A DNA stretch of 45,907 nucleotides, from contig JACRCW010000166.1 of assembly GCA_016218805.1 (NCBI GenBank), forward strand, positions 1-45,907. Reading direction: 5' to 3'. The DNA comes from Deltaproteobacteria bacterium (GTDB lineage: Bacteria > Myxococcota > JACRCW01). The position numbers and the translations under genes were made by a program. The notes beneath the pieces were generated by a model that saw only the letters and a list, made by a program, of their open reading frames with translations, was not told the origin of the DNA and ran no database searches. Positions 25,134 to 45,151 of the stretch are shown here, in pieces (position 1 is the first letter of the stretch; every line of letters begins with the position of its first letter).

Positions 25134-25160
25134 TGGACCAGACCGCCCCAAAGGACCTCC

Positions 25161-26595: not shown

Positions 26596-26649
26596 GGGTG
26601 TGACGGCGCCGCTGTCACAGGCTTCCACGGACGGTCGGGCCGCCATCCG
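26596..26649 (+). ncRNA. nhaA-I-like riboswitch candidate upstream of dctM
   Basis: GGGTG, stem GTGACGGC/GCTGTCAC, CAGG, hairpin CGGACGG-TCGGGCCG-CCATCCG. Confidence 0.75.
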
Positions 26650-26783
26650 CCTGCCAGGCTCACGCAAGCGCGTGGGCCGGCGGCGGGCACCGGCATCACC
26701 GGCGCGCGCCGTCATCCGGAGCCCAGGCCCATGCCCCAACCACGCTGCTCCACGCGGTTCCTCTCCCTCCGCCGGGGCCCGAC

Positions 26784-28400
26784 GTGACGGCGCTCCACGT
26801 CGGTCTGCTGGTTCTGGACGCCGTGCTCGCCGTGCTGGCCTACCGGCGCCGCCGCCGAGGCATGGCGGTGTGGCTCGCCCTGCTCACCACGACCTTCCTC
26901 TTCACGGGCAAGGTGACCTTCGTGGTGTTGGGCACCGTCGCAGCGGCGTTGCTCCTGGGCCAGCCGTTGTTTGTGCTGATGGGTACGCTGGGGATCCTGC
27001 TGTTGGCCACCGTGTCCGGCATGGGCAGCCTGGATGACCTCACCGTGGTCGTTCGCAAGCTGCTGGAGTTGGCCAGCAAGGAGGTGCTGCTGGCCATTCC
27101 GTTCTTCGTCGTGGCGGGGGAACTGATGACCCACGGCAGCCTTGCGCGCCGGTTGGTGGACGTCATGCGCAGCCTGTTCGCGTGGATTCCCGGCGGACTG
27201 GCCATGGCCGCGGTGTCCGGGTGCGTCTTCTTCGCCGCCATTTCCGGGAGTTCGCCCGTCACCGTGGTGGCCATCGGTTCCATCATGGCCCCGGCGCTCA
27301 TCAAGTCCCGCTATCCGGAGGATTTCTCCATTGGCCTGCTCACCACGGCGGGCTCCCTGGGCATCCTCATTCCGCCCTCCATCCCCATGATCGTCTACGC
27401 CATCATGGTGGGTGCCTCCACGCCGGTGGACCCCATGGAGCTGTTCATCGCCGGCATCCTGCCCGGCCTCATGATCGGCGCCCTGCTCGCGGGGTACTCG
27501 TTTCTGGTTGGTTACCGGCGGCGCGTCCCCACGGAGCCGTTCAGCTGGCCCACCGTCACCACGGCGGTGTCTGAAGGCATCTGGTCCCTGCTGCTGCCCA
27601 TCATCATCCTGGGTGGCATCTACTCCGGCACCTTCACCGCCACTGAGGCGGCAGCCGTCAGCGTCCTTTACGCGCTGGCCGTGGAGGTGTTCATCCACAA
27701 GGAGCTGGACGGAAAGAAGCTCGCCGCGGTGGCTGCCGGTTCCATGACGGTGATGGGCTCCCTGCTGGTCATCATCGCGCTGGCCATCACGCTCAACTAC
27801 TTCCTTGTGCTGGAGGGCATCCCCGACCTGATGGTGAACTGGCTCAAGGGGCTGGACCTGTCCCGGCCTACCTTCCTGCTGCTGGTGAACCTGCTGTTGC
27901 TGGTGGTCGGCTGCTTCATGGACATCATGAGCGCCATCCTCATCATCGCGCCCATGCTCGCGCCCATGGCCAACGCCATGGGGATTGACCCGGTCCACAT
28001 GGGCATCATCTTCATCGTGAATCTGGAGATCGGTTACCTCACGCCTCCGGTGGGACTGAACCTGTTCGTGAGTTCCACGCTGTTCAAAAGGAGCCTCGGG
28101 TTTGTCACGCGTGCGGTGCTGCCCACGCTGGCCATCATGGTGTTCGGTCTGTGCATTGTGGTCTGGGTGCCGCAGGTCTCCCTGCTGCTGGTGGAAGCGG
28201 TCCGCAAACCGCCCACGGCCCCCGCCGCTGTCATCACGCCGGCGGTTCCTCCGGCGGGCCCCGCCCGGGTCAAGACGCTGGAGGAGCTGATGCGCGAACA
28301 GCGCGACGGGGGCGCGTCGCCCAGCACCACACCGCCGCCGCCCCGGGTGAAGACGCTGGAAGAACTCATGCGCGAGGCGCGCGAGCGCGGGACCGAGTGA
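26784..28400 (+). CDS. dctM: TRAP transporter large permease (DctM family)
   Basis: LLAIPFF, FFAAISGSS, GSLGILIPPSIPMIVY, FTATEAAA, GYLTPPVGLNLFV. Confidence 0.92.
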   Translation: MTALHVGLLVLDAVLAVLAYRRRRRGMAVWLALLTTTFLFTGKVTFVVLGTVAAALLLGQPLFVLMGTLGILLLATVSGMGSLDDLTVVVRKLLELASKEVLLAIPFFVVAGELMTHGSLARRLVDVMRSLFAWIPGGLAMAAVSGCVFFAAISGSSPVTVVAIGSIMAPALIKSRYPEDFSIGLLTTAGSLGILIPPSIPMIVYAIMVGASTPVDPMELFIAGILPGLMIGALLAGYSFLVGYRRRVPTEPFSWPTVTTAVSEGIWSLLLPIIILGGIYSGTFTATEAAAVSVLYALAVEVFIHKELDGKKLAAVAAGSMTVMGSLLVIIALAITLNYFLVLEGIPDLMVNWLKGLDLSRPTFLLLVNLLLLVVGCFMDIMSAILIIAPMLAPMANAMGIDPVHMGIIFIVNLEIGYLTPPVGLNLFVSSTLFKRSLGFVTRAVLPTLAIMVFGLCIVVWVPQVSLLLVEAVRKPPTAPAAVITPAVPPAGPARVKTLEELMREQRDGGASPSTTPPPPRVKTLEELMREARERGTE

Positions 28401-28415
28401 CGGACGGGTTCTACG

Positions 28416-28844
28416 TCAATGCACCAGTGTGACCGGCAGCCGTGTGCGGTGGATGACCTTGGTGGCCACGGAGCCCATCACCAGGTTTCCCACGGCACCC
28501 ATCCCGTGCGTCCCCATCACAATGGCCTGGCAAGCCTCCTCCTCGGCCACACGGGCAATCTCGTCGGCCACGTGCCCCTCCCTGGCCTGGCTGGTGAAGG
28601 GAACGCCCGCCTCCTTGAGCCGCCTGGCCGCGTCGGCAAGTTGGCGCTCGCTGGCATCCAGCCGCTGCGCTTCCGCGGCGCGTTCACTGACGTACACCGC
28701 CACCTCCCCGTACACGATGGGCGGTTCCTGAACGTTGAGCAGCCGGACCTCCAGTGGCCCCAGCTCCTGGGACAGGCCAATCACGTGGTCCACGGCGTGG
28801 AGCGAGGATTCAGACCCGTCAACGGGCAGCAGAATGCGGTGCAT
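28416..28844 (-). CDS. Universal stress protein
   Basis: ILLPVDGS, IVMGTHG.G, MGSVATKV; GGAGG RBS. Confidence 0.93.
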   Translation of the reverse strand: MHRILLPVDGSESSLHAVDHVIGLSQELGPLEVRLLNVQEPPIVYGEVAVYVSERAAEAQRLDASERQLADAARRLKEAGVPFTSQAREGHVADEIARVAEEEACQAIVMGTHGMGAVGNLVMGSVATKVIHRTRLPVTLVH

Positions 28845-28986
28845 CATCACCTCCGCTGAACACCGGGTGGCTGCAAGGAAGATGGGCATCAACGCACGGG
28901 GCGGCAACCGCGCTGGCATGGAGTCTCTGGGGCGCTGCAACCGTTGCCCGGCCCCACTTCCGTCGATACACAGCCGCCAGCTTCAC

Positions 28987-29044
28987 GGGTGCACGGCGAC
29001 GCCGCTGCAGGACGTAAGAGGGAGGGTCGGGCCGCCCTCCCCTT
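28987..29044 (+). ncRNA. nhaA-I-like riboswitch candidate upstream of nhaA
   Basis: GGGTG-stem-CAGG, hairpin GGGAGGG-TCGGGCCG-CCCTCCC; directly 5' of nhaA. Confidence 0.8.
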
Positions 29045-29078
29045 GGATGCGCCCTAGCGGCGCCGGAACCGCGAGCCC

Positions 29079-30434
29079 ATGGCCCACGCAACGGACCCGA
29101 TGAACCTGACCCGGCCAGCGCCGATCGAGCGGCTGGTTGCCCCCGTGCAGGCGTTCCTCAGGCACCGCCTGGCCGGCGCGGGGTTGTTGCTGGGTGCCGC
29201 CGTCGCAGCGCTGGCCTGGGCGTCCTCGCCGTGGGGAGACGGTTATGACGCCCTGCTCCACACCCGCGCGGCCGTGACGCTGGGACCGTGGACGCTGGAG
29301 AAGACCGTGCACCACTGGGTCAATGACGCCGTCATGGCCCTGTTCTTCTTCGTCGTTGGCCTGGAGCTCAAGCGCGAAATCCTTGAAGGCGAGCTGTCCA
29401 CACGCGCCAAGGCCATGCTCCCCGCGGCGTGCGCCGCCGGCGGAATGCTGGTGCCTGCGGCCATCTACGCCGCGGTGAACACCGGCAGGCCCTCGCTGGC
29501 GGGCTGGGGGATCCCCATGGCGACGGACATCGCCTTTGCGTTGGGCGTGCTGGCTTTGCTGGGTGAGCGGATCCCGGCCGCGTACAAGGTCTTCCTCACC
29601 GCCGTGGCCGTCGCGGATGACCTCGGTGCGGTGCTGGTCATTGCGTTGTTCTACACGGACGGCCTCTCCATCCCCGCGCTCCTTGGGGGCGGGCTGCTGG
29701 TGGGCCTCGCCGTCGTGATGAACGTCGTCGGCATCCGCCACCACGTCGCCTATTTCGTCGTAGGGCTTGGGGTCTGGCTCTGCTTCTTGGAGTCCGGCGT
29801 CCACGCCACCCTGGCCGCCCTCCTGGTGGCCTTCACCATCCCCGCGCGTACCCGGCTGGACAGCCGGGGCATGGCGCAGTCCCTGGACCGGCTGGTCCAG
29901 CACTACGCCGCTCAACCGCTGCCTGACGGATACGGCCTGTTGAAACCCTACGAGCAGGATGTCCTGCACGAGATTGAACACGTGGTGGAGCGGGGAACGG
30001 CGCCGCTGCAGCGCCTGGAACACGCGCTGCTGCCGCTGGTCACGCTGGTCGTGCTGCCCGTGTTCGCGTTTGCCAACGCGGGCGTGCGCGTCCAGGGCAA
30101 CCCGTTGGACCTGGTGGCCAGCCCGCTGGTGCTGGGCATCGTCCTCGGGCTGGTCGTCGGGAAACCCGTGGGCATCCTGGCGGCGGCATGGGTGACGGTG
30201 CGGCTTGGCGTGGGGGAGTTGCCCGCCGGGCTGTCCTTCCGGGCGGTGGGCGCACTGGGTGTGCTGGGCGGGATCGGTTTCACCATGTCGCTGTTTGTCG
30301 GCGGGCTGGCGTTCAGTGACCCGGCGCTGGTGGACGCGGCCAAGGTGGGCACGCTGCTGGCGTCCGTGGTGGCCGGCACCGCGGGATTTCTGGTCCTGCG
30401 GCGGCTCCGCCCGGTACCCCGGCCCCCGGCCTGA
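29079..30434 (+). CDS. nhaA: Na+/H+ antiporter NhaA
   Basis: WVNDAVMALFFF.VGLELKRE, GWGIPMATDIAF, AVADDLGA, GKPVGI, GIGFTMSLF. Confidence 0.97.
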   Translation: MAHATDPMNLTRPAPIERLVAPVQAFLRHRLAGAGLLLGAAVAALAWASSPWGDGYDALLHTRAAVTLGPWTLEKTVHHWVNDAVMALFFFVVGLELKREILEGELSTRAKAMLPAACAAGGMLVPAAIYAAVNTGRPSLAGWGIPMATDIAFALGVLALLGERIPAAYKVFLTAVAVADDLGAVLVIALFYTDGLSIPALLGGGLLVGLAVVMNVVGIRHHVAYFVVGLGVWLCFLESGVHATLAALLVAFTIPARTRLDSRGMAQSLDRLVQHYAAQPLPDGYGLLKPYEQDVLHEIEHVVERGTAPLQRLEHALLPLVTLVVLPVFAFANAGVRVQGNPLDLVASPLVLGIVLGLVVGKPVGILAAAWVTVRLGVGELPAGLSFRAVGALGVLGGIGFTMSLFVGGLAFSDPALVDAAKVGTLLASVVAGTAGFLVLRRLRPVPRPPA

Positions 30435-30539
30435 TCAGCGCCTGCCGGGCGCGCCGCCGCAGGGACCGCGTGGAGCGGGACGGCTTCGCGGGCGCTCAGA
30501 CGTGGTTGGCGGTGGCGCCGGGGTAGGGACCAGCGCGCT

Positions 30540-31397
30540 TCACCCTGTGGGGGGCGTGTTCATCGGCGCCGTGACCGGCGGCTCCGGGGTCTCACCGTCC
30601 GCCCGGGTGCGCGTTGGGCGCAGGCGGCGCAGCGCACTGCGGAAGGACACGCGCTCAAACTTCTGAGCGGTTGCCGGGTCATTCCAGTAGGCACTCATTC
30701 CGCACGCACGGGCGTGCCGTGCAAGGAGCACCGCCAGCGTGAGCAGCCGATCCCGCAACTGCTTCATTTCTGCCTGAGACCGCACTCCAATAAGCGCCAG
30801 CACATCCCGGCCTTCGGCGGCCGTCAGCAGGCGCTCACCTTCATGGATGTCCGCGTCAGTGAACCCGACGGCGCCCAGTTGTGCCTGGTCGCTCCGGGCT
30901 GCCATCACCAGGGCGCGCAAGTCCGCGCATTCCTCCTCAATGGTCCCGGACTCGTTGTGGTCCTGGTAGGTGCCCAGCTTGGTGGCATCAAAGAAGAACA
31001 CCTGGGACGCCTTCAACCGCAGCTTGTTGCGCCAAGGCATGCTTGCGCGGATGGCCTGATCCACCGTCTGCGCCTTCCAATCTCCCAGCCGCAGCTGGTT
31101 GGAGAACAGGCCATTCACGGTCAACAGCGCCACAATGGTGTCGCGGAATCGGCTCCGCTCCGCTGGGCCGAACTGCACGCGGGCAAGGTCCGACTCGTGG
31201 TCGTTGATCATCAAGAACAGATCCACCACCTCCAGCCGCGTGGCCTCCACGCTCTGATCGGGTTCCATCACCTCGGTGACCAATGTGGCCAGCGGTTCCC
31301 GCAACCTGGCCAGCAGTTCCTGCAGTGCGTCCGCGGATTCCACGGGTTTCAGCTGGCGCAGGACCAGGGCCTGCGCCTCAGAGATTTGGACTGGCAT
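30540..31397 (-). CDS. Hypothetical all-alpha-helical protein (285 aa)
   Basis: Long ORF with GGAGG RBS before ATG 31397; lower GC and atypical codons; no recognisable motif. Confidence 0.75.
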   Translation of the reverse strand: MPVQISEAQALVLRQLKPVESADALQELLARLREPLATLVTEVMEPDQSVEATRLEVVDLFLMINDHESDLARVQFGPAERSRFRDTIVALLTVNGLFSNQLRLGDWKAQTVDQAIRASMPWRNKLRLKASQVFFFDATKLGTYQDHNESGTIEEECADLRALVMAARSDQAQLGAVGFTDADIHEGERLLTAAEGRDVLALIGVRSQAEMKQLRDRLLTLAVLLARHARACGMSAYWNDPATAQKFERVSFRSALRRLRPTRTRADGETPEPPVTAPMNTPPTG

Positions 31398-31446
31398 CAC
31401 CCACCTCCAAGCAGCGTTATCTGTTGGGGCACGGCCCCCGCCGCGT

Positions 31447-31579
31447 GTGGTTGCCCGCCTACCCTCCGCCCTTTTCAAGCCGCAACCACGGACCGCGCGA
31501 ATACGACATTTGGCGGAGGGTGCGGGCGGCGTGTTGAGGCCGCGCTTCTCATCGCCGTGATGGCGCCGTCTCACGGCGA
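31447..31579 (-). other. Highly structured leader / candidate ncRNA upstream of the hypothetical gene
   Basis: Stems ACCCTCCGCC(31461-70)/GGCGGAGGGT(31512-21), GTGGTTGC(31447-54)/GCAACCAC(31482-89), TCGCCGTGA(31552-60)/TCACGGCGA(31571-79). Confidence 0.45.
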
Positions 31580-31690
31580 GGCCCAGATGAAGGACGAGAC
31601 CAGGTCACGCCTGACGCGTGGCCACCACAGCGCGAACGAATGGAGCAAATGCCCGGTCCTTGTTCTTGGTTGGAGCGGGAAGATCATCTC

Positions 31691-31969
31691 CCAGCGCGGC
31701 GTCACGGGCGCTCCAGCGCGTCCGCGCGGCAGCGCCAGTGCGCCCGCCATCCCATGCCGGCGCCCGCGCCACGCGCCGCCAGCGCGGGGGGGACCAGTTC
31801 CCAGCGCGCCCCAGACCCAACCCCAGCGCACCCCGGAGCTGACTCCAGCGCACCCCTCATGCTGCCCGGCAGGCGCTGGTGTGGGTTCCCGTGCGTGCTG
31901 GTGAGGAGTCGGGGGAGTGCTGGTGCGCTTCCAGGGGCCTGCTGGTGTTGGCTGCGGGGAGTGCTGGTG
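31691..31969. repeat. Head-to-head 22-bp-phased motif array (8 + 5 units, variable 15-nt spacers)
   Basis: CCRGYGC at 31691, 31713, 31735, 31757, 31779, 31801, 31823, 31845; inverted SYGCTGGTG at 31873, 31895, 31917, 31939, 31961. Confidence 0.88.
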
Positions 31970-32716
31970 GAGACGCGGCTCACGCAGGGCGTGGAGGACC
32001 CGGCGTTTGCGGCTGGCGTCAGGACCCAGGTCCGGGTGCTGCGCCGGGTGGTGGCCATGATCATTGCCATCCTTGGGACGGCGCTGGTGCTGATGCAATT
32101 CGCCGTGGTCCGCAACGTGGGCGCGTCATTGCTGGCCAGCGCCGGCGTTGCGGGGATTGTGCTGGGGCTGGCGGCGCAGCGGTCCATCTCCATGCTGCTG
32201 GCCGGAATCCAACTCTCCCTGACACAGCCCATCCGCATCGGTGACACGGTGATCATTGAGAACGAATGGGGATGGATTGAGGAGATCACGCTGACCTACG
32301 TGGTGGTGCGCGTCTGGGACCTGCGGCGGCTGGTGGTGCCCATCACGCGGTTCCTGGAGCAGCCGTTCCAGAACTGGACCAAGGTGACCCCGGAGATCAT
32401 GGGGACGGTGTCGGTTTTCGCGGATTACTGCGTGCCGGTGGACGCGGTGCGCCAGCACCTCAGCCTCGTCGTCAAGGACGACCCGCTGTGGAATGGGAAA
32501 GTGTGCGGCCTGCAGGTCACGGAGGCCACCGACCGGGTGGTGACCCTGCGCGCGCTGGTGTCATCCGCGGACGCGGGGAAGAACTGGGACCTGCGCTGCA
32601 ATGTGCGCGAAAAGCTGGTGGCCTACCTGCGGGACCTGGAAGGCGGACGGTACCTGCCGCAGCAGCGCGTACTGCTCACACAGCCCCAGCCACCAACGGA
32701 CAGGCGGTTGACCTGA
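31961..32716 (+). pseudogene. Small-conductance mechanosensitive channel (MscS family), apparently 5'-truncated
   Basis: ASAGVAGIVLGLAAQ, PIRIGD, GWIEEITLTYVVVRVWDLRRLVVP; the upstream in-frame sequence is the repeat array, not TM helices. Confidence 0.65.
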
Positions 32717-32758
32717 GGGCCGCCGGATGCGCCTGAGAACCCGCCATCACCGGCTCCC

Positions 32759-32830
32759 GGGTTGACATGACGTGAAGGCGGTGAAACCCGGGCTTTCAAG
32801 CGGTCCCTGCCGCTCGCAGCCGGGCCGCGC
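32759..32830 (+). ncRNA. Candidate cis-regulatory RNA (GGTTGA...CGGTG...GCAGCCGGGCCG; DUF1646/Na+-riboswitch-like)
   Basis: Shares CGCAGCCGGGCCG (32815-27), a preceding hairpin and an upstream TTGAC with the trkH leader; sits just before the GGAGG RBS. Confidence 0.4.
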
Positions 32831-32843
32831 ACGGAGGTCGCAG

Positions 32844-33545
32844 ATGGCGGTGGTGGTTTCGCTCCACGGAGCGGAGAAGTCGTACGGGACAACCGTCAGG
32901 ACGCGGGCGTTGCACCCCACTTCGCTGGAGTTTGAGGGCGGCAAGGTGGTGGCCATCCTCGGTCCGTCGGGGTCCGGAAAGACCACCCTGCTCAACCTGG
33001 TGGGCGGGCTGGATCGTCCTGACGGCGGGCGAGTGGTGGTGGACAACGTGGACATCAGCGGGCTGAACGACCGCGGACTCACGGAGTTCCGGCGGCGGAC
33101 GGTGGGTTTTGTGTTCCAGTTCTTCAACCTGGTTCCCAGCCTGACGGTGCGCGAGAACGTTGCCTTTGCCGCCGAGATAGCGGGTCTTTCCACCGACGTG
33201 GACGGTGTCATCCGTGACGTAGGCCTGGCGGGCTTGGAGGACCGTTTTCCCGGGGAACTGTCCGGCGGCCAGCAGCAGCGGGTGGCCATTGCCCGGGCGC
33301 TGGCCAAGAAGCCCAGGCTGGTCCTGGCCGACGAGCCGACGGGAGCGCTGGACCAGGACACGGGCAAGCAGGTTCTGGCTCTGCTGCAGGACGCGGCCCG
33401 GAACCAGGGCACCACCGTCCTGCTGGTGACGCACAACACGCCGCTGGCCGCCATGGCTGACCGGGTGACCCGGCTGAAGGACGGCGCGGTGGTGAAGGAT
33501 GAGATGAACCTGTCGCCGATGCCGATTGCCGACATCAACTGGTGA
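32844..33545 (+). CDS. ABC transporter ATP-binding protein (LolD/MacB-like)
   Basis: GPSGSGKT, GFVFQFFNL, LSGGQQQRVAIARAL, LADEPTGALD. Confidence 0.95.
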   Translation: MAVVVSLHGAEKSYGTTVRTRALHPTSLEFEGGKVVAILGPSGSGKTTLLNLVGGLDRPDGGRVVVDNVDISGLNDRGLTEFRRRTVGFVFQFFNLVPSLTVRENVAFAAEIAGLSTDVDGVIRDVGLAGLEDRFPGELSGGQQQRVAIARALAKKPRLVLADEPTGALDQDTGKQVLALLQDAARNQGTTVLLVTHNTPLAAMADRVTRLKDGAVVKDEMNLSPMPIADINW

Positions 33546-33554
33546 GGGGTGCAG

Positions 33555-36147: not shown

Positions 36148-36187
36148 AGCCGTTGAGCGTGTGAGCCCCGCCAGAAAGCACCTGGTG

Positions 36188-36295
36188 GCCGCAGTCCGCC
36201 CGTTGCGGCGGGTGCAGACCAGTGCATGCCCCGCCGCCACGACGTCCACCGTGCGCTCCGCATGGCCGCAGCTGTCCAAATCTAATCTGTTCGCA
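36188..36295 (-). repeat. MITE-like family B, partial copy 2
   Basis: Homologous to ~8324-8412; begins immediately after the rnfE TAG. Confidence 0.6.
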
Positions 36296-36922
36296 CTAGC
36301 GCGCCCGCCGCTGCGCCAGTTTCTCCTTGGCCCACGTGAGCCCCACCAGCAGCACCCCCAGCGTCAGGAATCCGCCCGGCGGGAGCTTCATGACCGCCCA
36401 CGGTTCAAAGCGGTCCCCAAAAACCTGCACCCCGCCCAGCGTGCCGGAGCCCAGCAGTCCGCGGATGCCGCCCACCAGGCTCAGCACCAGCGTGAACCCG
36501 CCCGCCATCCCCACGGCGTCCGCCACGGACAGCCACACCGTGTTGCGGCTGGCAAACGCCTCGGCGCGGCCCAGGATGATGCAGTTGACCACAATCAGCG
36601 AGATGAACGCCCCGAGCTGCCGGTGCGCCGTGGGCAACCACGCGGCGAGCATGAAATCCGCCGCCGTCACGAACGTGGCGATGATGATGATGTACGTGGC
36701 GATGCGGACCGGCCCCGGGATCACCGCGCGCAGCGCGCTGATCAGCGCGGAGGACCCCACCAGCACAAATGTGGACGCCAGGCCCATCACCACACCGTTG
36801 GCCAGTGAGTTGGTCACCGCCAGCGCCGGACACAGCCCGAGCACCAGGGTGAACACGGGGTTTTCGCGCCACAGCCCCTTGAGCAGTTCCCGCTTGAAGG
36901 CGCAGTCCGCCGTGTCGTTCAT
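36296..36922 (-). CDS. rnfE: Rnf/Rsx electron transport complex subunit E
   Basis: ENPVF..VLGLCPALAVT, VRIATYIIIIATFVT, LIVVNCIILGRAEAFA, GGIRGLLGSG, LPPGGF. Confidence 0.9.
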   Translation of the reverse strand: MNDTADCAFKRELLKGLWRENPVFTLVLGLCPALAVTNSLANGVVMGLASTFVLVGSSALISALRAVIPGPVRIATYIIIIATFVTAADFMLAAWLPTAHRQLGAFISLIVVNCIILGRAEAFASRNTVWLSVADAVGMAGGFTLVLSLVGGIRGLLGSGTLGGVQVFGDRFEPWAVMKLPPGGFLTLGVLLVGLTWAKEKLAQRRAR

Positions 36923-37680
36923 GGTCTCTCCGTGCCGGCGGCGTCCGCCGCCCGCGGGTGCGTGCTGAAGAACGTGTGAATGCCGGGCGCAACCCCGGCG
37001 CGTTGCCGGCGTGGTTCGGCCGGTGCGGAGCGCCGCTCGCGGCGCGACGCGGGCGGCGGTGCGTCCCCGACGGACAGCGGCGCCAGTTGTGCGGCCACGC
37101 GCGCCGTCAGCCCGACCGGCGTGAACAGCGCGCAGAACCATCCCCCGCGGTCACCGTTGCCCTGCTGACCCGTGCGGCCCTCCACGGCCACCCACTGCTG
37201 GCCGTCCGGGATGTCCCCCAGTTCCAGACCGCCAAACGACGTCCAGGTCCCGTTCCGGGTATCCACGTCCCGCACGCCGGCCAGCGCCACGTTCCCCCGG
37301 GGCGCATCCAGTCCGCTGTCACGCAGGTCCTGGCAGGTCACCGTCGCCGCAGGGCAGTCCTGCGTGCGTTCGCACACGGCGCGCGCCGCCGAGCGCGGGT
37401 GCACCACGGCGTAGCGGACGGACCGCAGGGGGACGCCGGCGGGCGTGACAACATCCGCCACCAGGTGGTGCGTGCCTGACGGACGGGGCGTGCACGTGCC
37501 GCCCACGCAGTACGTGGTGGCGGTCTCCGGCGCGCGCGAAGAGGTCCCCGCAACCAGCGGCCCGCAATCCGCTGCCGCGTTGCACTCCGGTGCATGGGAT
37601 GGACAGGCGGGCCCAAGCGCGACCCACGCCGCCAAGGGGAGGAGCCGGGAAGATGCGGGAGTTCCTACGCAAGGGGCCAT
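36919..37680 (-). CDS. Hypothetical Cys-rich exported protein / lipoprotein
   Basis: Signal-like segment ending LGPAC, CNAAADC..YCVGGTC; ATGA overlap with the rnfE start. Confidence 0.55.
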   Translation of the reverse strand: MAPCVGTPASSRLLPLAAWVALGPACPSHAPECNAAADCGPLVAGTSSRAPETATTYCVGGTCTPRPSGTHHLVADVVTPAGVPLRSVRYAVVHPRSAARAVCERTQDCPAATVTCQDLRDSGLDAPRGNVALAGVRDVDTRNGTWTSFGGLELGDIPDGQQWVAVEGRTGQQGNGDRGGWFCALFTPVGLTARVAAQLAPLSVGDAPPPASRRERRSAPAEPRRQRAGVAPGIHTFFSTHPRAADAAGTERP

Positions 37681-37726
37681 CAGTCCCACCGGGGCGGACG
37701 CCGCGCGTGGCGCGCGTCCTGCAGCC

Positions 37727-37781
37727 GGTTGGCGGCCCGACCAACCTGAACCTGCGTCTGCCACCCTTTGGCAGCACACCC
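37727..37781 (-). ncRNA. nhaA-I-like riboswitch candidate upstream of the lipoprotein-rnfE genes
   Basis: Minus strand GGGTGTGCTGCCAAAGGGTGGCAGACGCAGG...GGTTGG-TCGGGCCG-CCAACC. Confidence 0.75.
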
Positions 37782-37893
37782 TGTGCGGGCGCCTGTAGAC
37801 CGCCGCCGTCCCGCCGACAAGCTGCGGCCCGGGACGGACCGGAGGCACGGAGGCCAGACCGTCCGGCGCCGCGCTGTGCAGCGCGCCCGTGGT

Positions 37894-38577
37894 TCACACG
37901 GCCTCGCGCCCCAGTGCCTCCACCGCTTCGTCCGGCCCGGCCACCACCAGGACGTCCCCATCCTCAAGGCGCAACGTGGGCTCCGCGCGCACCGCCGTCT
38001 CCACCGCCTGGCCGGCGCGGTCCACCCGGCGGCGCACGGCAATCACCGTGGCGTGCGCGTGGCCGCGCTCCGCCAGCGCGCCAAGCTCTTCGCCCACAAA
38101 GTGCGCGGGAACCACCACGGACGCGAGCGAATACCCCGACGGCAGCGCCAACGCGGACTCCAATCCGGGCGCCACCAGCGTGCGGGCCACCTGCTCCGCC
38201 GCCTGCAACTCCGGGTACACCACCTGGGTGGCGCCCAGCGCCTGGAGGATGCGCCCGCGCGTGTGGGACGGCGCACGGGACACAATCCGCGGGATCCCCA
38301 TCCGCGCCAGTGCGCTGACGCCCAGCGCGGCGGCCTCAAAGTCCTCCTCGCCCAGCGCAAACACGACGCAGTCCGCCTTGTCCAGGCCCGCGCCGCGGAG
38401 CGCGGCCTCGTCAGCGCAGTCCAGCCGGACCGCGCGCGCCACCAAGTCCTTGATACCCTCCACCTTGGCCATGTCCTCGTCCGCGGCAATGACGTGCGCG
38501 CCCGCACGCGTCAGCGTCAACGCCAGGTGCCGCCCGAACTGCCCCAGGCCAATCACCCCAAACGCCTGCTTCGCCAT
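37894..38577 (-). CDS. trkA: Trk/Ktr potassium uptake RCK subunit
   Basis: VIGLGQFG Rossmann motif, LGATQVVYPE, TrkA_C-like end. Confidence 0.9.
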   Translation of the reverse strand: MAKQAFGVIGLGQFGRHLALTLTRAGAHVIAADEDMAKVEGIKDLVARAVRLDCADEAALRGAGLDKADCVVFALGEEDFEAAALGVSALARMGIPRIVSRAPSHTRGRILQALGATQVVYPELQAAEQVARTLVAPGLESALALPSGYSLASVVVPAHFVGEELGALAERGHAHATVIAVRRRVDRAGQAVETAVRAEPTLRLEDGDVLVVAGPDEAVEALGREAV

Positions 38578-38589
38578 GGCTTCTCCTCG

Positions 38590-40377
38590 TCAACCCACCT
38601 GGACACGCCCTTCGGGATACTCCACGGGCGCCGCGCGCCGGGTCCCGCCCAGTGCCAGCGCCAGGGTGAACGGCCCCAGCCGGCCCATGAACATCATGGC
38701 CACCAGCACCGTCTGCCCGCCGTCAGACAACGTGGGCGTCAGGTTCAGGGTGTACCCCACGGTGGCAAACGCGCTCACCGCCTCAAACGCCAGCGCCAGG
38801 AACGGCACCGCGGGCTCCGCCAGCATCAGCAGCACCGTCAGGGCCCAAAGCAAACCCAATGACAGCGTGACCACCGTGATGGCGCGGTGGACCTGCCCGG
38901 TGGGGATGGTGCGGCCAAACACCTCCGCGCGCGGGCGGCCACGGATGGCCGCGCGCACCGCCAGCAGGATCACCGCCAGCGACGTTGTCTTCACCCCGCC
39001 GGCCATGCCCCCCGGCGAGCCGCCCACCAGCATCAGGAACAGGCACACCAGCAGCGCCGGCGGCCCCAGCGTGGCGAGATCAACCGTGGCGAACCCCGCG
39101 GTCCGCAGCGACACGGACTGGAACAGCCCAATGAGCAGGACCTCGTCCCAGCGGCGGTCCCGCCATCCGTGCCCGCCCTCCAGCACGCACAGCGCCGCCG
39201 CCCCCACCAGCACCAGCGCGGTGGAGGTGGTGAGCACCAGCCGCGTGTGGACGGACAGGAAATCCCAGGCGTGCCGCGGCCCGTGGCGCCACGGGGCCCG
39301 GACCAGATCCATGAATACGGATGCGCCCAGGCCGCCCAGGAAGATGAGCGCCATGGTGACCCCGTTGACCAACCACGACGACGAGAACCGGACGAACCCG
39401 TCCGCGTACAGCGCAAATCCCGCGTTGCAGTACGCGCTGACGGAGTGGAACACCGCGTAGAACACCCGGTCCGGCCCAAGCAGCGGGGCACCGGATGGGT
39501 CCACCGTCATGGCGGGGAACAGGCCCACCGCACCCAGCCCCTCGCACAACACCGTGGATGCCACAATGGTGACCAGCAGCCCGCGCAGTTCACCCGCGTT
39601 GCGTGCCTCCAGCATCTCCTGCACCGCCACGCCGGCCCGGCCCGCCAGGCGCTCCCGCATCATCACCGCCACGCCACTGGTCAGCGTGATGATGCCCAGC
39701 CCGCCCACCTGGATGAGGATCAGGATCACCCACTGGCCAAACCGCGAGTAGTACGTCCCGGGATCCACCACGGTCAGGCCGGTGACGCACACGGCCGACG
39801 TGGCGGTGAACAGCGCCACCAGCGGGAATTTCACCACGTGCTCCGCGGTGGCACTGGGCGTGAGCAGCAGCACCGTCCCCGCAAAGATGGTCCCCAGGAA
39901 GGAGACGACGAGCGCGGACGCCGGCCGTGCCATCAACCAGTGGAGCACGCGCGCGCCGCCGCTGCGGTGCGTCACCTGCAGCGTACTCACCATCACGGTC
40001 CGCAGGATGACCACCAGCCCCGCCGCGCGCAGACTGGCCACCGCCAGCAGCAGCAGCGACGCCATGAAGAACAGCAGGTCCACGCCGCCGCGGCCCCGCA
40101 GCGTGCGCGCGGGCGAGACCAGCGTGGCCCACGTGGACAGCGACGCGACGCTCATCAACCCCAGGTGCAGCGCGTCATACGCGAGACTGATGTGCACGGA
40201 TTCCGTGCCGCCCCGCCAGCCGAACTCGATCACCGCCAGCAGCGCCACGTACAGCCACGTGGCGCGGCCTGGGCGGTCCGCCTCGTCAAGCGCCCGGCGG
40301 CCCAACCCGGACACCTGGCGTAACAGGCGCCGCAGCGGGCCGGCCGTTTCGACTTGGGGTTCCTGCGGGGAGGCCAT
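38590..40377 (-). CDS. trkH: Trk/Ktr potassium uptake membrane subunit with N-terminal TM extension
   Basis: FTATSAVCVTGL, LIQVGGLG, SAYCNAGF, RTAGF, GGVKTT, FEAVSAFATVG, MFMGRLG; start chosen at ATG 40377 (GGAG RBS). Confidence 0.9.
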   Translation of the reverse strand: MASPQEPQVETAGPLRRLLRQVSGLGRRALDEADRPGRATWLYVALLAVIEFGWRGGTESVHISLAYDALHLGLMSVASLSTWATLVSPARTLRGRGGVDLLFFMASLLLLAVASLRAAGLVVILRTVMVSTLQVTHRSGGARVLHWLMARPASALVVSFLGTIFAGTVLLLTPSATAEHVVKFPLVALFTATSAVCVTGLTVVDPGTYYSRFGQWVILILIQVGGLGIITLTSGVAVMMRERLAGRAGVAVQEMLEARNAGELRGLLVTIVASTVLCEGLGAVGLFPAMTVDPSGAPLLGPDRVFYAVFHSVSAYCNAGFALYADGFVRFSSSWLVNGVTMALIFLGGLGASVFMDLVRAPWRHGPRHAWDFLSVHTRLVLTTSTALVLVGAAALCVLEGGHGWRDRRWDEVLLIGLFQSVSLRTAGFATVDLATLGPPALLVCLFLMLVGGSPGGMAGGVKTTSLAVILLAVRAAIRGRPRAEVFGRTIPTGQVHRAITVVTLSLGLLWALTVLLMLAEPAVPFLALAFEAVSAFATVGYTLNLTPTLSDGGQTVLVAMMFMGRLGPFTLALALGGTRRAAPVEYPEGRVQVG

Positions 40378-40395
40378 GAACGCTCCGGCGCGGTC

Positions 40396-40468
40396 CGGCC
40401 CGGCTGCGGGCAGGAGCCAGCGCGCTGCCCGGCGAATGGCCGACCGGACGCCCACCGGTCAACACCGC
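40396..40468 (-). ncRNA. Candidate cis-regulatory RNA upstream of trkH (related to 32759-32830)
   Basis: Minus strand TTGAC...hairpin GGGCAG/CTGCCC-GCAGCCGGGCCG, then the RBS. Confidence 0.35.
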
Positions 40469-40576
40469 CTGGGTGCGCTGCACCGGGCAGGCGCGGATGC
40501 GTTCCGGGCGGAATGGAAACGCGGGACTACCGGGCGCACGGCGTTTCCCCTCGCGCCCGGCAGCTCCCGTTCCAGG

Positions 40577-41254
40577 TCACTTCTTGGCGGGCGCGGCGGC
40601 CGGCGCAGCACCCTTGGCGGGCGCGGCTGCGGGCGCGGCGGCGGGCTGGGCTGCGGGCGCCGGCTGCGCGGCGGGTGCAGCAGCGGCGGGCTGCGCGGCG
40701 GGCGCGGCGGCAGCCTGCGGGGCGCTCATGCCACCCCAACCGGCCTCCACCATGCTCTTGAACTTCCACTGGCCGTCACGCTTCACCAGCAGGCTCTGGT
40801 TGCGGCCGGTGATCTTGGTCTTGCCCATGGTCATCGTGAAGTCATCCACCACGGAAACCAGCGAATCACTCAGCACCGTGATGACGGGCTTGTGCGTCGT
40901 CTTGGCGTCCTTGGGCATGTTCTCATAGAACGGCTTCATCATCGCCACGTATTCATCCTTGCCGTACGGCTTGGACTCCGGCACGCCCTTGAGGTCGTCC
41001 GTCACCATGAACACCGGGAAATCCCGGAGCGCCAGCATGCCCTCCATGTCGCCCTTCTTGCCCAGTTCGTCGTCCTTCTTGAAGAACTCGTCGATTTCCT
41101 TCTTGGTCTGCTTTTCGTTGGTGGGCTTGCGGGCCATGGGGCCCATCTTGGTCATGTCCATCGCGGGCGCGGCGGGCGCCGCCGCCGGCGCGGTCTGCGC
41201 CAGCGCAACGGTTGAGAAACACACGCACGCGAGGAAACTGAGCGCCTTCTTCAT
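40577..41254 (-). CDS. Secreted Met-rich NTF2-like (DUF4440-like) protein with Ala/Pro tail
   Basis: Signal peptide ..VALA, LLVKRDGQWKF terminal strand; AGGAG RBS. Confidence 0.7.
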   Translation of the reverse strand: MKKALSFLACVCFSTVALAQTAPAAAPAAPAMDMTKMGPMARKPTNEKQTKKEIDEFFKKDDELGKKGDMEGMLALRDFPVFMVTDDLKGVPESKPYGKDEYVAMMKPFYENMPKDAKTTHKPVITVLSDSLVSVVDDFTMTMGKTKITGRNQSLLVKRDGQWKFKSMVEAGWGGMSAPQAAAAPAAQPAAAAPAAQPAPAAQPAAAPAAAPAKGAAPAAAPAKK

Positions 41255-41450
41255 TGGCAAGCTCCTGCCCGGAGGTCCGGGAGTTGAGGTGATGCGGCGC
41301 GGGTAGCGCTGGGGTCTGCGGCGGGTCAAGCCAAGCGCCCGTCGGAAGCACGGTGTGACATATGACCATCCGGGACGTCATCACCAAGCGGGCGCCTAGG
41401 TTCGTCAGACCGGCGTGGCCGTTCACGCTGTGCGACAGCAGGGCACGCAG

Positions 41451-41625
41451 GAACGTCCGGCCTGGTCGCACGGACCCTCCGGCATGCACCAAGTGAGCAT
41501 CCGGGATGGCCCATCGGACCGCTCGTGGTGGTCAGGTCCGCCGTACGCGGTGCACCGGCGGACCATCCGGGGCGCTCCACGGAGCACACGCGGTTCACCC
41601 CCGGAACAAAGGGACGACGCGGTTG
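41451..41625 (+). repeat. Degenerate 22-bp-period tandem array
   Basis: GA(A/C/G)CnTCCGG at 41451, 41473, 41495, 41561; weaker units at 41517, 41539, 41582, 41604; further GACCATCCGG at 41364. Confidence 0.55.
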
Positions 41626-41902
41626 GCCAACGTCGACCTCATGCAGCCAACACCAGTTCCGTTCGGCTGGTCCGTCATGGCCCGGCTCCTTGGCGTTGCC
41701 GCCACTGCGGGTGCCGTCGGCCCGAAGCCGTGCTGTGGGTAGATGCGTCGCGCACCGCGGCGCGGTCGTTCGCACCGCCCGGCGGCGCGACCCGGCGCGA
41801 CCCGCCCACGCATCCTGCTGGTTTCCCACGTCGAACAAGCCTGCTAGACAGCGCCCTTGTCGACCCTGGCTCTCCGCTGGGAGGTCACGGAGGTTGGAGC
41901 CG

Positions 41903-43081
41903 TTGCCGCTGATTCGTGAGGTAACCATTGAGAACTTCAAGTCCATCCGCACCCTTACGATGGCACTTGGGAGGGTGAATGTGCTCATCGGCGAGAACGG
42001 GTCGGGCAAGAGCAACCTCTTGGAGGCGCTGGTGATGGGATGCGCCGCTGGCCGCGGCCGGGAAGGGCCTGAGTACCTCGCGCCGCGCGGAGTCCGGGTG
42101 ACGGATCCCAAGTACATGCGCTCTGCCTTTGATGAAGGAAGTTCTGGGATCCCGGCCCGCGTGCACCTCCGGGATGAACGCGGCGTCGAGACGAGCGTGG
42201 AGTTGAACTTTGACCCGTCAGAGAACGCCAGGTTTCGCGGGTTCATGGCAAGCATGATGCCTAGGATCCTGCAAACGCTCACAGCATCCGGGGAGACCCG
42301 GTTCCTGGCTCCGCTCAACAATCTCATGCATTCCGGAACGCTCACGCAGGAGGACCAAAAGGATCTTGACGCATTCCTTGAGATGATCCTCAAGACCGTT
42401 ACGGAAGCCGGGACCATCAATGCCCCACCGGATTTCCGAATATTCGCACCCGAGAACGCCTCCCTCCGTGCGTTCCAACTAGAAGGCCAAACGCTCCCGC
42501 TCAGCGGCTCTGGTGTGGGCCTTTTTGCCCATCTCAAGGCCCTCTCCGTGGACAAGCAGCCCGTCTTCCAGAAGATCACTGACCGGCTGGCGCTTTTGGA
42601 CTGGTTTGAGAAGCTGGAGATGCCACAGGACTTGGCGCCGCAGGAACGGAGCATCCGCATCCGTGACCGATTCCTCTCTCCGGGAGCGTTGTTTGATCAG
42701 CGCAGCGCCAATGAGGGTTTCCTCTTCCTTCTTTTCTATTTCACGTTGTTCATCAGCCCAGAAACCCCGGCTTTCTTTGCCGTCGACAACGTGGACGCGT
42801 CGCTGAATCCCAAGCTATGCCGCGCGCTGGTGAAGGATTTGGCCCAACTCGCCGTTGACCATGGCAAGCAGGTCATCTTCACCACCCACAACCCCTCGGT
42901 GCTTGATGGCCTGGACCTCTCAGATGAAGAGCAGCGTCTCTTCGTCGTCGAGCGTGGGGAGGATGGTGCCACGCATGTTCGACGCGTCCCTCAACCCAGG
43001 CCGCCTGAAGGTGAATCCCCGGTGAAGCTGTCCGACGCATTCCTCCGAGGCTACCTGGGTGGACTGCCCAACAATTTCTGA
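41903..43081 (+). CDS. ABC-type ATPase (AAA_21/AAA_15-like), putative anti-phage component
   Basis: IENFKSI, GENGSGKSN, FFAVDNVDASLNP, IFTTHNP; TTG start (41894 or 41903) with GGAGG. Confidence 0.85.
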   Translation: MPLIREVTIENFKSIRTLTMALGRVNVLIGENGSGKSNLLEALVMGCAAGRGREGPEYLAPRGVRVTDPKYMRSAFDEGSSGIPARVHLRDERGVETSVELNFDPSENARFRGFMASMMPRILQTLTASGETRFLAPLNNLMHSGTLTQEDQKDLDAFLEMILKTVTEAGTINAPPDFRIFAPENASLRAFQLEGQTLPLSGSGVGLFAHLKALSVDKQPVFQKITDRLALLDWFEKLEMPQDLAPQERSIRIRDRFLSPGALFDQRSANEGFLFLLFYFTLFISPETPAFFAVDNVDASLNPKLCRALVKDLAQLAVDHGKQVIFTTHNPSVLDGLDLSDEEQRLFVVERGEDGATHVRRVPQPRPPEGESPVKLSDAFLRGYLGGLPNNF

Positions 43082-43090
43082 GGCAGCAGC

Positions 43091-43750
43091 GTGCTCACGT
43101 TTGGGGTCATTGCGGAAGGAAAAACGGACTTTCCGGTCCTGAGGAACATCCTGTGCGGTTACTTCACCGACCCGGCGGTCAACCGGGTGCAGCCGGAGAA
43201 CGACGAAGATCCCGCGGGCTGGTCGCAGGTGTTTGCGGCACTGAACAAAGGCAAGCACCGTGAAGCCCTGCAGTTCAACGACTTCGTGGTTGTGCACGTG
43301 GATACCGACGTGTGCCAGGAAAAGGGCTTTGATGTCCCCGTGCACGCGGAAGGGCGGGCGCTTTCCAAGGACGAGGTGCTGGACCGCGTTTGTCAGAGAT
43401 TGAAGGAGCTCTTGGGAGCACCTTTCCTGGACCGCTACGGAGACCGGGTCATCCTTGCCGTCGCTGTAGAGGCCATCGAATGCTGGCTGATGCCCCTGCT
43501 CTTCCGCGATGCAAAACAAGCCAAGACCACCGGCTGCCTGAGAGCTGTGAACCGTGAGAGGACGCGGAGGAACTTGCTCGCCCTCTCCAGCGCGGACGAG
43601 AAACAGAAGTTCCTGCGACAGTACGACGATGCGTCGCGCGAGTATCGCACGCGCAAGACACTGCTTGAACGCGCTCCGGAGAACCTCAGTCTGGCGCATT
43701 TTGTCTTTCAATTGAGCCTCCTCACGCCAACCGTCATCGACCGGAGTTGA
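43091..43750 (+). CDS. TOPRIM-like (OLD/DUF4435/DUF4276-type) putative nuclease partner of the ATPase
   Basis: VIAEGKTD and HVDTD acidic motifs, IECWL; 9 nt downstream of the ATPase. Confidence 0.7.
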   Translation: MLTFGVIAEGKTDFPVLRNILCGYFTDPAVNRVQPENDEDPAGWSQVFAALNKGKHREALQFNDFVVVHVDTDVCQEKGFDVPVHAEGRALSKDEVLDRVCQRLKELLGAPFLDRYGDRVILAVAVEAIECWLMPLLFRDAKQAKTTGCLRAVNRERTRRNLLALSSADEKQKFLRQYDDASREYRTRKTLLERAPENLSLAHFVFQLSLLTPTVIDRS

Positions 43751-44007
43751 GGATCGGATCGGCGGTGTCCCAGGTCGCCCGACGGGCCCCGCCCGCTGAG
43801 CACCATCGGACCAACGGGGCGGGACGGAAGGCCGCCTGCGGGGTTCCGGCACAACTGTGCGCGCCTGTCGGGCAGGCGACGGGCGTGGACTGGCCATGGC
43901 GTGGTGGCGGCCAACTTTGGCTGCCCGGGGGGTTCACGCGGAGCCTGGCCCGCGCTGGAGAACTGAACGCGGGACCGCGCCTGAGTCTGTCCACCGCGAA
44001 AAGGCCC

Positions 44008-45081
44008 TCAACCGCGCCGGTGTGCCATTTCCGCCACTTTCCCCGGCACGTGCTGGTTTGGCCGTCGCGGGAGTTCGCCGCCTTCAGCAGGCGTTCCGCC
44101 CAGCAACAACCACCCGCAATAGACGGCAAAGAACGTCACCAGCAGCGCGCCCGCGGGACGGGACACGCGTTGCCGGTGGAACGTGAGCAGTCCCAGCAAT
44201 CCGCCCGTGGCCAGCATGATCCACATGTCCACGCCGCTGAGCGCCGCGGCCACGGGGATGGGCGTGACCAGCCCGGCCACGCCCAGGATCATCAGCGTGT
44301 TGAACACGTTGGAGCCCACCACGTTGGCTACCGCCATCTCGTGGTGCCCGCGCCGCGCGGCCAACAGGCTTGCCGCCAGTTCCGGGAGTGAGGTGCCCAC
44401 CGCCACCACGGTCAGGCCAATGACCCGTTCAGTGATACCCAGCATTCGCGCGGTGTGAATGGCGCCGTTGACCAGGGCGGACGCGCTCACCGACAGCGCC
44501 ACCAGCGTGACCAGCAGTCCCAGCAGCAGAGCGGGCAGCGGGCGGGTGGCCAGACCCGCCGCCGGGGGCGGCACCTGTTCCGCCAGTTCCTGGCGCTCCG
44601 CCGGTGGCAGGACCCGCCGCGCCAGCCACACCGAGTAGGAAATGAACGCCACCATGGCGGCCGTCAGCAGCGCGGCCTCCACCCGGTCCAGCAGGCCGTC
44701 ACGGGACAGCACCAGCACCAGCGCCCCGGACAGCATCATCACCGGGTACTCCAGCCGGAGGATGGCGGGAGCAATGGGAACGGGCCAGGCAAGTGCCACC
44801 GCTCCGAGGACGAGCGTGAGGTTGGAGATGTTGGAGCCCACCACGTTGCCCACGGCAATATCGGGCGAGCCGTCCCAGGCGGCGGCCACGGAGACGAACA
44901 GCTCAGGGAACGACGTGCCCGCGGCCACCACCGTCAGGCCGATGACGGCGGGTGACAGGCGCGCCCGCTCTGCCAGCGCGGCGGCGAAATCAACGAGTTT
45001 GTCACCGGCAAGCCACAGCCCGGCCGTCCCGAGGACCATCAGCCCGATGTGAAGCACCACGGTGCACCCCGCGGTCCCCAT
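44008..45081 (-). CDS. Ca2+/Na+ antiporter (YrbG family)
   Basis: Two alpha-repeats: GLTVVAAGTSFPEL..GNVVGSN and GLTVVAVGTSLPEL..NVVGSN; start may be a GTG slightly downstream. Confidence 0.93.
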   Translation of the reverse strand: MGTAGCTVVLHIGLMVLGTAGLWLAGDKLVDFAAALAERARLSPAVIGLTVVAAGTSFPELFVSVAAAWDGSPDIAVGNVVGSNISNLTLVLGAVALAWPVPIAPAILRLEYPVMMLSGALVLVLSRDGLLDRVEAALLTAAMVAFISYSVWLARRVLPPAERQELAEQVPPPAAGLATRPLPALLLGLLVTLVALSVSASALVNGAIHTARMLGITERVIGLTVVAVGTSLPELAASLLAARRGHHEMAVANVVGSNVFNTLMILGVAGLVTPIPVAAALSGVDMWIMLATGGLLGLLTFHRQRVSRPAGALLVTFFAVYCGWLLLGGTPAEGGELPRRPNQHVPGKVAEMAHRRG

Positions 45082-45094
45082 GAGGGGACCCCCG

Positions 45095-45151
45095 GGATGG
45101 CGGCCCGACCATCCGTTGCCTGCATGACCGCCAGCGCGGCGGCGTGCACCC
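45095..45151 (-). ncRNA. nhaA-I-like riboswitch candidate upstream of the Ca2+/Na+ antiporter
   Basis: Minus strand GGGTGCA...TGCAGG-CAAC-GGATGG-TCGGGCCG-CCATCC. Confidence 0.78.

Follow-up and report, generated by a model that had tools for sequence, protein, structure and literature searches.

The window analysed here is the 45,907-nt contig JACRCW010000166.1 of a Deltaproteobacteria bacterium (assembly GCA_016218805.1; positions 1 to 45,907 of the forward strand), which carries four copies of one structured RNA, the nhaA-I motif, within 18.6 kb. On sequence grounds, the four elements are genuine members of the known nhaA-I/Li+-I riboswitch class, and we give a probability of roughly 0.8 to the explanation as a whole, in which these RNAs would act as translational ON switches of a small regulon, governed by cis-acting RNAs, in a salt- and osmotic-stress island. 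The RNA itself is no addition to the list of riboswitch classes. Three of its gene associations, with a DctM-like permease, with a gene pair encoding a putative lipoprotein and RnfE, and with a Ca2+/Na+ antiporter of the CaCA family, were not found in print, and the RnfE pair is the most interesting of the three for its link to the Rnf Na+ path. The four aptamers, whose two hairpins are termed P1 and P2, are located as follows.

26596..26648, + strand: nhaA-I aptamer copy 1 (45.0 bits; P1 of 8 bp; C after CAGG; U before CGGGCC), leader of the DctM-like gene
28987..29040, + strand: nhaA-I aptamer copy 2 (42.1 bits; P1 of 7 bp; P2 GGAGGGU/GCCCUCC), leader of nhaA
37727..37781, − strand: nhaA-I aptamer copy 3 (53.1 bits, E-value 8.6e-08; P1 of 9 bp; P2 GGUUGGU/GCCAACC), leader of the lipoprotein-RnfE pair
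45095..45151, − strand: nhaA-I aptamer copy 4 (44.6 bits; P1 of 9 bp; P2 GGAUGGU/GCCAUCC), leader of the Ca2+/Na+ antiporter gene

The window was scanned with cmscan against 4227 Rfam families at their gathering thresholds, which is 37 bits for nhaA-I (RF03057). Exactly four matches are returned, all to nhaA-I and each spanning positions 1–55 of the 55-position model, with E-values of 8.6e-08 to 4e-05; no other family is matched. The starts of these matches are identical to the sites at 26596, 28987, 37781 and 45151 where the first-pass annotation, made from the letters alone, had placed a recurring motif (GGGTG, a variable stem, CAGG, a linker and a stem-TCGGGCCG-stem), and its assignment to nhaA-I, a Li+-responsive riboswitch class validated in PMC9646797, is borne out. 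The genome (6.43 Mb in 170 contigs, 92.4% complete) contains five nhaA-I matches, the four in the window and a fifth (copy 5, 43.1 bits) on contig C34. None of the five is antisense or intragenic; each stands in sense orientation, as had been proposed for the window sites, 13–135 nt ahead of the next gene. The distance to the start codon is 135 nt for copy 1, 38 nt for copy 2, 46 nt for copy 3 and, for copy 4, either 13 nt (ATG 45081) or 37 nt (GTG 45057). The invariant blocks GGGUG, CAGG and GGUCGGGCCGCC and both hairpins are present in all five copies. P1 consists of 7–9 bp in each copy despite unrelated sequences, and P2 consists of 6–7 bp with A-U/U-A and G-C/U-A exchanges at two positions, which upholds the earlier claim of covariation within a single window. 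The stem pairs quoted in support of that claim are correct for copies 2, 3 and 4; the P2 stem of copy 1 differs and reads GGACGG/CCAUCC with one C-A mismatch. Chance look-alikes were considered and rejected on the basis of the E-values and the sense-leader position of all five copies.

nhaA-I RNAs have been validated as Li+-selective ON switches, termed Li+-I (White et al., 2022, Sci Rep 12:19145; PMC9646797), the ON direction and the Li+ response of nhaA-associated members having been established by reporter assays and in-line probing. Variants that respond to Na+ (Na+-II) are rare, come from Deltaproteobacteria and carry a C where most members carry a U (PMC9646797). The Na+-II representative, a construct from Desulfobulbus propionicus, contains GGGUC, GGAGG and C before CGGGCC and uses an intrinsic terminator platform (PMC9646797); mapped from this construct, the variant position is the nucleotide directly before the CGGGCC loop. 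In all five copies of the present genome the fifth base of GGGUG is G, CAGG has its C and the base before CGGGCC is U, and the Na+-II letters (C before CGGGCC; GGGUC and GGAGG at the base of P1) occur in none of them. No terminator-like site is found between aptamer and start codon in any of the five leaders, and no U-tracts are seen in the window leaders. The full Na+-II signature (GGGUC, GGAGG, AGCCGGGCCGCU) is present in a phylum-mate (L216; G084:C11:7904-7962), which makes its absence here informative; judged by these letters, the Li+-I and Na+-II types coexist in the phylum. The L216 aptamer precedes a gene for a 163-residue protein of no family, followed by one for a cNMP-binding/CBS protein. 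By every available sequence criterion, the five copies are of the Li+-I type.

The window copies share with the published Li+-I RNAs the full-length match, the invariant nucleotides, the two covarying hairpins, a sense position in the leaders of cation-transport genes and the lack of a terminator, and copy 2 precedes nhaA, the signature target of the class (PMC9646797). They differ in their number, five in one genome with four clustered, and in the DctM-only permease, the secreted protein with its solitary RnfE and the CaCA antiporter, none of which is named in the published table. With Na+-II they share the fold, the Rfam family, an origin in the former Deltaproteobacteria and non-nhaA genes that are partly of unknown function (PMC9646797), whereas none of the Na+-II sequence features or its terminator is seen in the window copies. 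The Na+-I class (DUF1646 motif; White et al., 2022, Nat Chem Biol 18:878; PMC9337991) has a similar two-hairpin architecture and is likewise used in multiple copies, three of which control three sodium-related processes in Acetivibrio cellulolyticus (its Extended Data Figure 6); it is a separate Rfam family, however, and DUF1646 has no match in the window scan. Nqr, Rnf and TRAP are not mentioned in the main text of PMC9337991. The three bases before GGGUG, which may mark the transcription start, are CAA in six of ten aptamers from this genome and its relatives, the others being ACA, AAA, CAC and GAA. No sigma-70 consensus promoter is found near any copy.

The genes that follow the window aptamers are listed below.

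26731..26787, + strand: 18-codon upstream open reading frame with GGAG 9–12 nt ahead of the ATG; its stop (TGA) and the DctM start (GTG) overlap as GTGA
26784..28400, + strand: DctM-like permease of 538 residues (PF06808, 333.5 bits; TIGR00786, 381.9 bits against a cut-off of 268.45)
29079..30434, + strand: NhaA Na+(Li+)/H+ antiporter, the canonical class target (PF06965, 465.1 bits; TIGR00773, 409.6 bits)
36919..37680, − strand: Cys-rich protein of 253 residues with an N-terminal hydrophobic stretch, a putative secreted protein or lipoprotein (signal peptide and lipobox assigned by eye)
36296..36922, − strand: solitary RnfE of 208 residues (PF02508, 197 bits; TIGR01948, 213.6 bits against a cut-off of 213.4), whose ATG overlaps the preceding stop codon (ATGA)
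44008..45081, − strand: CaCA-family Ca2+/Na+ antiporter (PF01699, 201.1 bits, two repeats; TIGR00367, 211.3 bits against a cut-off of 179.65)

These are the four targets that the first-pass annotation had named, but the order of two of them is reversed: the copy at 26596 precedes the DctM gene and the copy at 28987 precedes nhaA. The CaCA gene may start at ATG 45081 or at the in-frame GTG 45057, the latter being more likely because the Pfam match begins at residue 11.

The window DctM scores best among the three DctM genes of the genome. In the other two, DctQ lies in the same open frame, and DctP stands beside one of them. Neither DctQ nor DctP is fused or adjacent to the window DctM, which is flanked by an NhaD-like gene and a convergent universal stress protein (Usp) gene. 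Full-length orthologs with 61–73% identity and both terminal extensions are present in at least 20 of 301 phylum genomes. No aptamer is found upstream of the 20 closest orthologs with the Rfam model, or upstream of 29 by pattern, which suggests that the riboswitch was acquired by DctM in this lineage only.

The 253-residue protein encoded first behind copy 3 has no Pfam or NCBIfam match. Its frame carries a clear coding signal, with a third-codon-position GC of 0.80–0.90 between 37600 and 37180. The nearest atlas clusters, a lead only at scores of 0.87–0.89, are Myxococcota hypotheticals, and the earlier description of the host as a myxobacterium is probable, these scores lying below 0.9. No relatives are confirmed in metagenome contigs by a method that finds close relatives only.

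The RnfE encoded behind it is in itself an ordinary member of its family and aligns end to end with subunit E of the Acetobacterium woodii Na+-Rnf complex (9eri_E, 197 bits). Na+ is taken past the membrane [2Fe2S] cluster of that complex by the RnfA/E dimer rather than by RnfD (Kumar et al., 2025, Nat Commun 16:2302; PMC11889175; PDB 9ERI), and the RnfE residues named for the cluster, gating and Na+ binding are L22, C25, R67, L103, V106, N107, C108 and E115 (PMC11889175). All eight are kept in the window RnfE as L28, C31, R73, L109, V112, N113, C114 and E121 (+6 numbering), so both [2Fe2S] cysteines and the Na+-path residues of the module are retained. The difference from the A. woodii module is that the window RnfE has no partner subunit and is paired with a family-less secreted protein behind a cation riboswitch. 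It is the only PF02508 match in the 92.4%-complete genome, in which neither an RnfA/NqrE partner nor PF03116 (RnfD/NqrB) is matched, though these could lie in the missing 8%; its neighbours are the family-less gene and a convergent FtsX gene. RnfE relatives occur in 44 of 301 phylum genomes, and all 29 other RnfE/NqrD loci retrieved, including one (L153) from a genome flagged as unpublished, have an adjacent RnfA/NqrE paralog. None of the 20 loci scanned has an aptamer within 1.5 kb. The closest relatives (54–69% identity) reside in normal rnf operons where the contig permits a view. Among six metagenome RnfE loci, RnfA lies downstream in two, the contig ends too early in another two, and in the last two an NqrD-like gene is followed by its paralog; an aptamer is found in none of the six. 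The lipoprotein-RnfE unit itself was found in no other genome searched. A comparison of the Lys and Arg bias of the window RnfE with that of 11 operon-encoded relatives is limited by the hydropathy segmentation, which resolved only three of six expected helices, and a two-copy RnfE complex prediction, made with a 12-row alignment, gives a score of 0.02 and a mark of 0.42, values that speak neither for nor against self-association.

The one parallel found is in L044, a Porticoccaceae metagenome-assembled genome (MAG), where a monocistronic gene for a full-length NqrE (273 bits to Vibrio cholerae NqrE, cysteines kept) follows an nhaA-I aptamer and a leader of 365 nt. One ordinary pair each of Rnf and Nqr is encoded in the same genome as well. 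Together with the window RnfE, this places lone A/E-type subunits behind nhaA-I in two unrelated lineages, one for each half of the pair. One might go further and regard the secreted Cys-rich protein and the solitary RnfE as a stand-alone alkali-cation device, in which half of the Rnf Na+ module would be freed from the redox pump and induced by Li+ or Na+ to move or buffer ions; on this reading, single subunits of the A/E type would be recruited repeatedly into cation-stress regulons. We hold this to be doubtful and offer it as speculation.

nhaA-I matches occur in 20 of 151 phylum genomes. The five copies found here are the highest count; two genomes have three copies, six have two and eleven have one. 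The three copies in one of them lie within 9.2 kb (G133:C1:4453465-4462722), and two in another lie within 8.5 kb (G001:C11:18111-26601), with otsA and a CPA antiporter as targets. Outside the phylum, loci were collected with a loose DNA pattern, which yielded at least 120 stretches; the 80 with 3-kb flanks were used and 40 loci with short flanks were left out. Among the matches listed, 29 of the 80 fully flanked loci pass the Rfam cut-off. As a census tool the pattern was discarded, since most of the other loci are chance matches in Actinobacteria of high GC content, where the genes that follow are unrelated. A helix filter was also rejected, as it passed 12 of 120 stretches and failed known true members, and the covariance model was used instead. 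A MAFFT/RNAalifold consensus of 39 aptamers misaligned the variable P1 and was used for the invariant columns and the nucleotide after CAGG only. Downstream genes were taken from a gene call filtered by third-codon-position GC, the longest-open-reading-frame call being unreliable in high-GC DNA.

At the 29 loci listed outside the phylum, the first downstream gene encodes NhaA in 15, Na_H_antiport_3 in five and a small membrane-protein family in two; CPA, CitMHS, Mrp, sucrose-phosphate genes, Rnf-Nqr and a resolvase account for one each, and one is unassigned. Within the phylum, 26 of 27 loci were parsed. NhaA is first in 11, the small membrane-protein family in three, CPA in two and a GT28 glycosyltransferase in two; OtsA, a sucrose-synthase-like glycosyltransferase, a P-type ATPase, Usp and an Rce1-like protein are first in one each, and three others are unassigned. 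One locus is common to both sets (L093 = L209), which leaves 54 distinct loci. Among these matches, DctM is found at none, CaCA at one, as the second gene after NhaA (L093), and an Rnf/Nqr-family gene at one, the solitary NqrE of L044. The published table of 944 nhaA-I associations names no TRAP/DctM, Rnf/Nqr or Ca2+/Na+ exchanger; its bins include 52 RNAs under 'Other', 171 under 'Hypothetical' and 185 under 'No gene information' (PMC9646797). A full-text literature search found no paper that joins the names of this riboswitch with TRAP or Rnf. The first-pass description of the targets as unusual is therefore sustained. In a record of Phytopseudomonas argentinensis (L041), a resolvase gene and, behind it, an autotransporter lipase come after an nhaA-I aptamer of 45.5 bits; here a mobile element may have displaced the target that was there before.

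Members of the ~107–125-residue membrane-protein family, which has no Pfam or NCBIfam match, are encoded first after the aptamer at six loci, given here with their coordinates.

L004:1083-1460, − strand: 125-residue member behind copy 5 of this genome (contig C34), followed by a Usp gene and a CPA antiporter gene
L218:1579-1899: family member
L220:1571-1915: family member
L224:1134-1478: family member
L086:2440-2907: family member
L098:2616-2960: family member

Pairwise identity within the family is 27–45% (E-values of 1e-7 to 1e-20), and its members come from Myxococcota, an Acidobacteria MAG and a Planctomycetota MAG. The family probably sits in the 'Hypothetical' bin of the published table.

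We infer the ligand, the ON direction, the translational mechanism and the co-regulation of these genes, the translational ON switch by analogy with the class, in which control of the ribosome-binding site is the usual mode (PMC9646797). Each aptamer would be transcribed as the 5´ leader of its gene. A rise in cytoplasmic alkali cation would then stabilise the aptamer with its two hairpins, P1 and P2, and its conserved nucleotides (GGGUG/CAGG/UCGGGCC), the ion being Li+, as known for the same sequence type, or Na+. Strands of P1 or P2 would thereby be withdrawn from alternative pairings with the downstream leader, the ribosome-binding region would open and expression would rise. The co-induced set would comprise NhaA for Li+/Na+ extrusion, the CaCA exchanger, the DctM-only permease and the secreted protein with the solitary RnfE and, on the other contig, the small membrane protein followed by Usp and the CPA antiporter. 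The term regulon is proposed here from the shared cis-elements.

Predicted folds of the leaders are consistent with such a switch. When folded to minimum energy without constraint, each of the five loses P1 or P2 to pairing with the downstream leader, and enforcing the aptamer costs 3.9–10.5 kcal/mol. In the predicted folds of copies 3 and 5, the Shine-Dalgarno region is paired to the 3´ arm of P2, which is rich in pyrimidines, while the 5´ strand of P1 has a long-range complement beside the start site in copies 1 and 4. When the aptamer is enforced, the mean unpaired probability of the ribosome-binding region rises from 0.49 to 0.53 in copy 2, from 0.40 to 0.46 in copy 3, from 0.27 to 0.39 in copy 4 (GTG 45057) and from 0.44 to 0.48 in copy 5. 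The 146-nt leader of copy 1 folds better than its shuffles (z = −3.06); in this fold the partner of the P1 5´ strand lies ~100 nt downstream. A leader-peptide attenuator was considered for copy 1 and set aside, given the full-length aptamer match and an 18-codon open reading frame without a run of regulatory codons.

Several points weigh against this scheme. The modelled gain in accessibility is slight in four leaders and nil in copy 1 (0.28 to 0.27), the other leaders are not clearly better than shuffles (z of −0.28 to −1.05), and alternative pairings are expected in any leader of 70% GC. With 135 nt and an intervening 18-codon open reading frame between aptamer and gene, the mechanism of copy 1 may differ. 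The small changes in accessibility would fit aptamers that act mainly on transcription, for example through Rho-dependent termination or through RNA stability coupled to translation, rather than by direct occlusion of the ribosome-binding site. The length of the copy 1 leader with its short reading frame, and of the 365-nt leader of the solitary nqrE in L044, fits such a route, as long leaders leave room for Rho. Copies 2–5 nevertheless end 37–46 nt before a plausible start codon, a spacing typical of translational platforms, ribosome-binding-site control is the usual mode for Li+-I (PMC9646797), and no intrinsic terminators are found in the leaders; we consider a mainly transcriptional action to be improbable. 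It is less probable still that one or more of the copies without nhaA play no part in regulation, being relics in decay or look-alikes that arose by chance. Orthologs do not share the DctM link and the lipoprotein-RnfE unit is confined to this genome among those searched; every copy, however, exceeds the curated cut-off over the full model with its invariant nucleotides and both helices intact, and all five matches lie in sense leaders and none elsewhere, with window E-values as low as given above.

The identity of the ion also bears on the preferred reading, Li+-I-type translational switches. The consensus U after CAGG in the Rfam model is missing in three of the four window copies and four of the five genome copies, the nucleotide being C, A, U, C and C in copies 1–5. 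Next to this position lies nucleotide 38, which in the validated 73 nhaA construct is one of the two sites that Li+ modulates most strongly (PMC9646797, supplement), so specificity could differ. The non-nhaA targets are all from Na+-linked families of proteins, and sensing of Na+ would suit them as well as sensing of Li+. Some or all copies of the same RNA class could sense Na+, and the set would form a sodium regulon built on specificity variants that are neither Li+-I proper nor the published Na+-II. There is precedent in that a single nucleotide (C54U) can shift or broaden specificity in the same fold, and the ligand of otsA-linked and tandem examples is stated as undetermined in PMC9646797. 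The targets point the same way, with RnfE from the Na+-conducting RnfA/E module (PMC11889175), a Ca2+/Na+ antiporter and a TRAP-type permease, but they do not tell the ions apart because Li+ passes most Na+ pathways. A tally of 58 aptamers (the window copies, L004, L006–L011, 29 census loci and 19 phylum loci) also leans toward Na+ variants: a NhaA-type gene comes next in 1/9 with C after CAGG and in 30/49 with U, A or G. The nine include copies 1, 4 and 5 of this genome, and aptamers with C at this position may form a specificity or target subclass, a weaker companion reading. The tally is, however, post hoc and hand-made, draws on related genomes and has one counter-example (L213, NhaA). Two marks of the Li+-responsive type, U before CGGGCC and a G...C pair that closes P1, are retained in all copies, and none has the terminator platform of Na+-II. 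A sodium regulon is possible but, on this evidence, unlikely.

The surroundings of the aptamers fit a salt response, since otsA and otsB, MscS, TrkAH, Usp and a CPA antiporter are all encoded nearby. The corresponding genes are as follows.

19829..26507: start of the salt-stress island, with a trehalase-like GH15 gene (− strand), otsA, otsB and genes for a MarR regulator and an NhaD-like membrane protein
28416..28940, − strand: Usp gene (PF00582, 99.2 bits), convergent with the DctM gene and ending 46 nt before aptamer copy 2
37894..40455, − strand: trkH-trkA for K+ uptake (TrkH, PF02386, 178.1 bits; TrkA_N, TrkA_C), directly upstream of aptamer copy 3 on the same strand

At 47.8 bits, well short of the cut-off, the assignment as NhaD-like is weak. 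The surrounding 26 kb also encodes MscS, an ABC/FtsX pair and, at the window edge, a CPA exchanger.

The sequencing runs listed as covering the region are all DNA runs of one groundwater study, with no RNA run among them, and one of the runs may be the source of the assembly. Error-free contig pieces bridge Usp, aptamer copy 2 and nhaA in two sister samples, and RnfE and the 253-residue gene in one sister sample. The junction of the 253-residue gene, aptamer copy 3, trkA and trkH, as well as the FtsX-to-RnfE side, is covered only by the possible source run. Over an ABC ATPase gene (window 32670-33306), the summed contig depth in the groundwater runs is ~10–20 times that of the flanks, most likely because conserved ABC sequence of other organisms maps there as well.

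Unknown proteins have repeatedly been given a function through the association of their genes with a riboswitch. In this genome, one validated cation sensor would mark three poorly understood genes as part of a Li+/Na+ response: a phylum-conserved DctM permease without the usual TRAP partners, a lone RnfE and a small membrane-protein family without a Pfam entry. The lone RnfE ties in with the 2025 result on the Na+ path through RnfA/E (PMC11889175) and may offer a natural minimal system for ion handling by a single subunit. Five copies with differing leader contexts in one genome would also provide a compact natural test set for relating the position after CAGG and the expression platform to Li+/Na+ selectivity.

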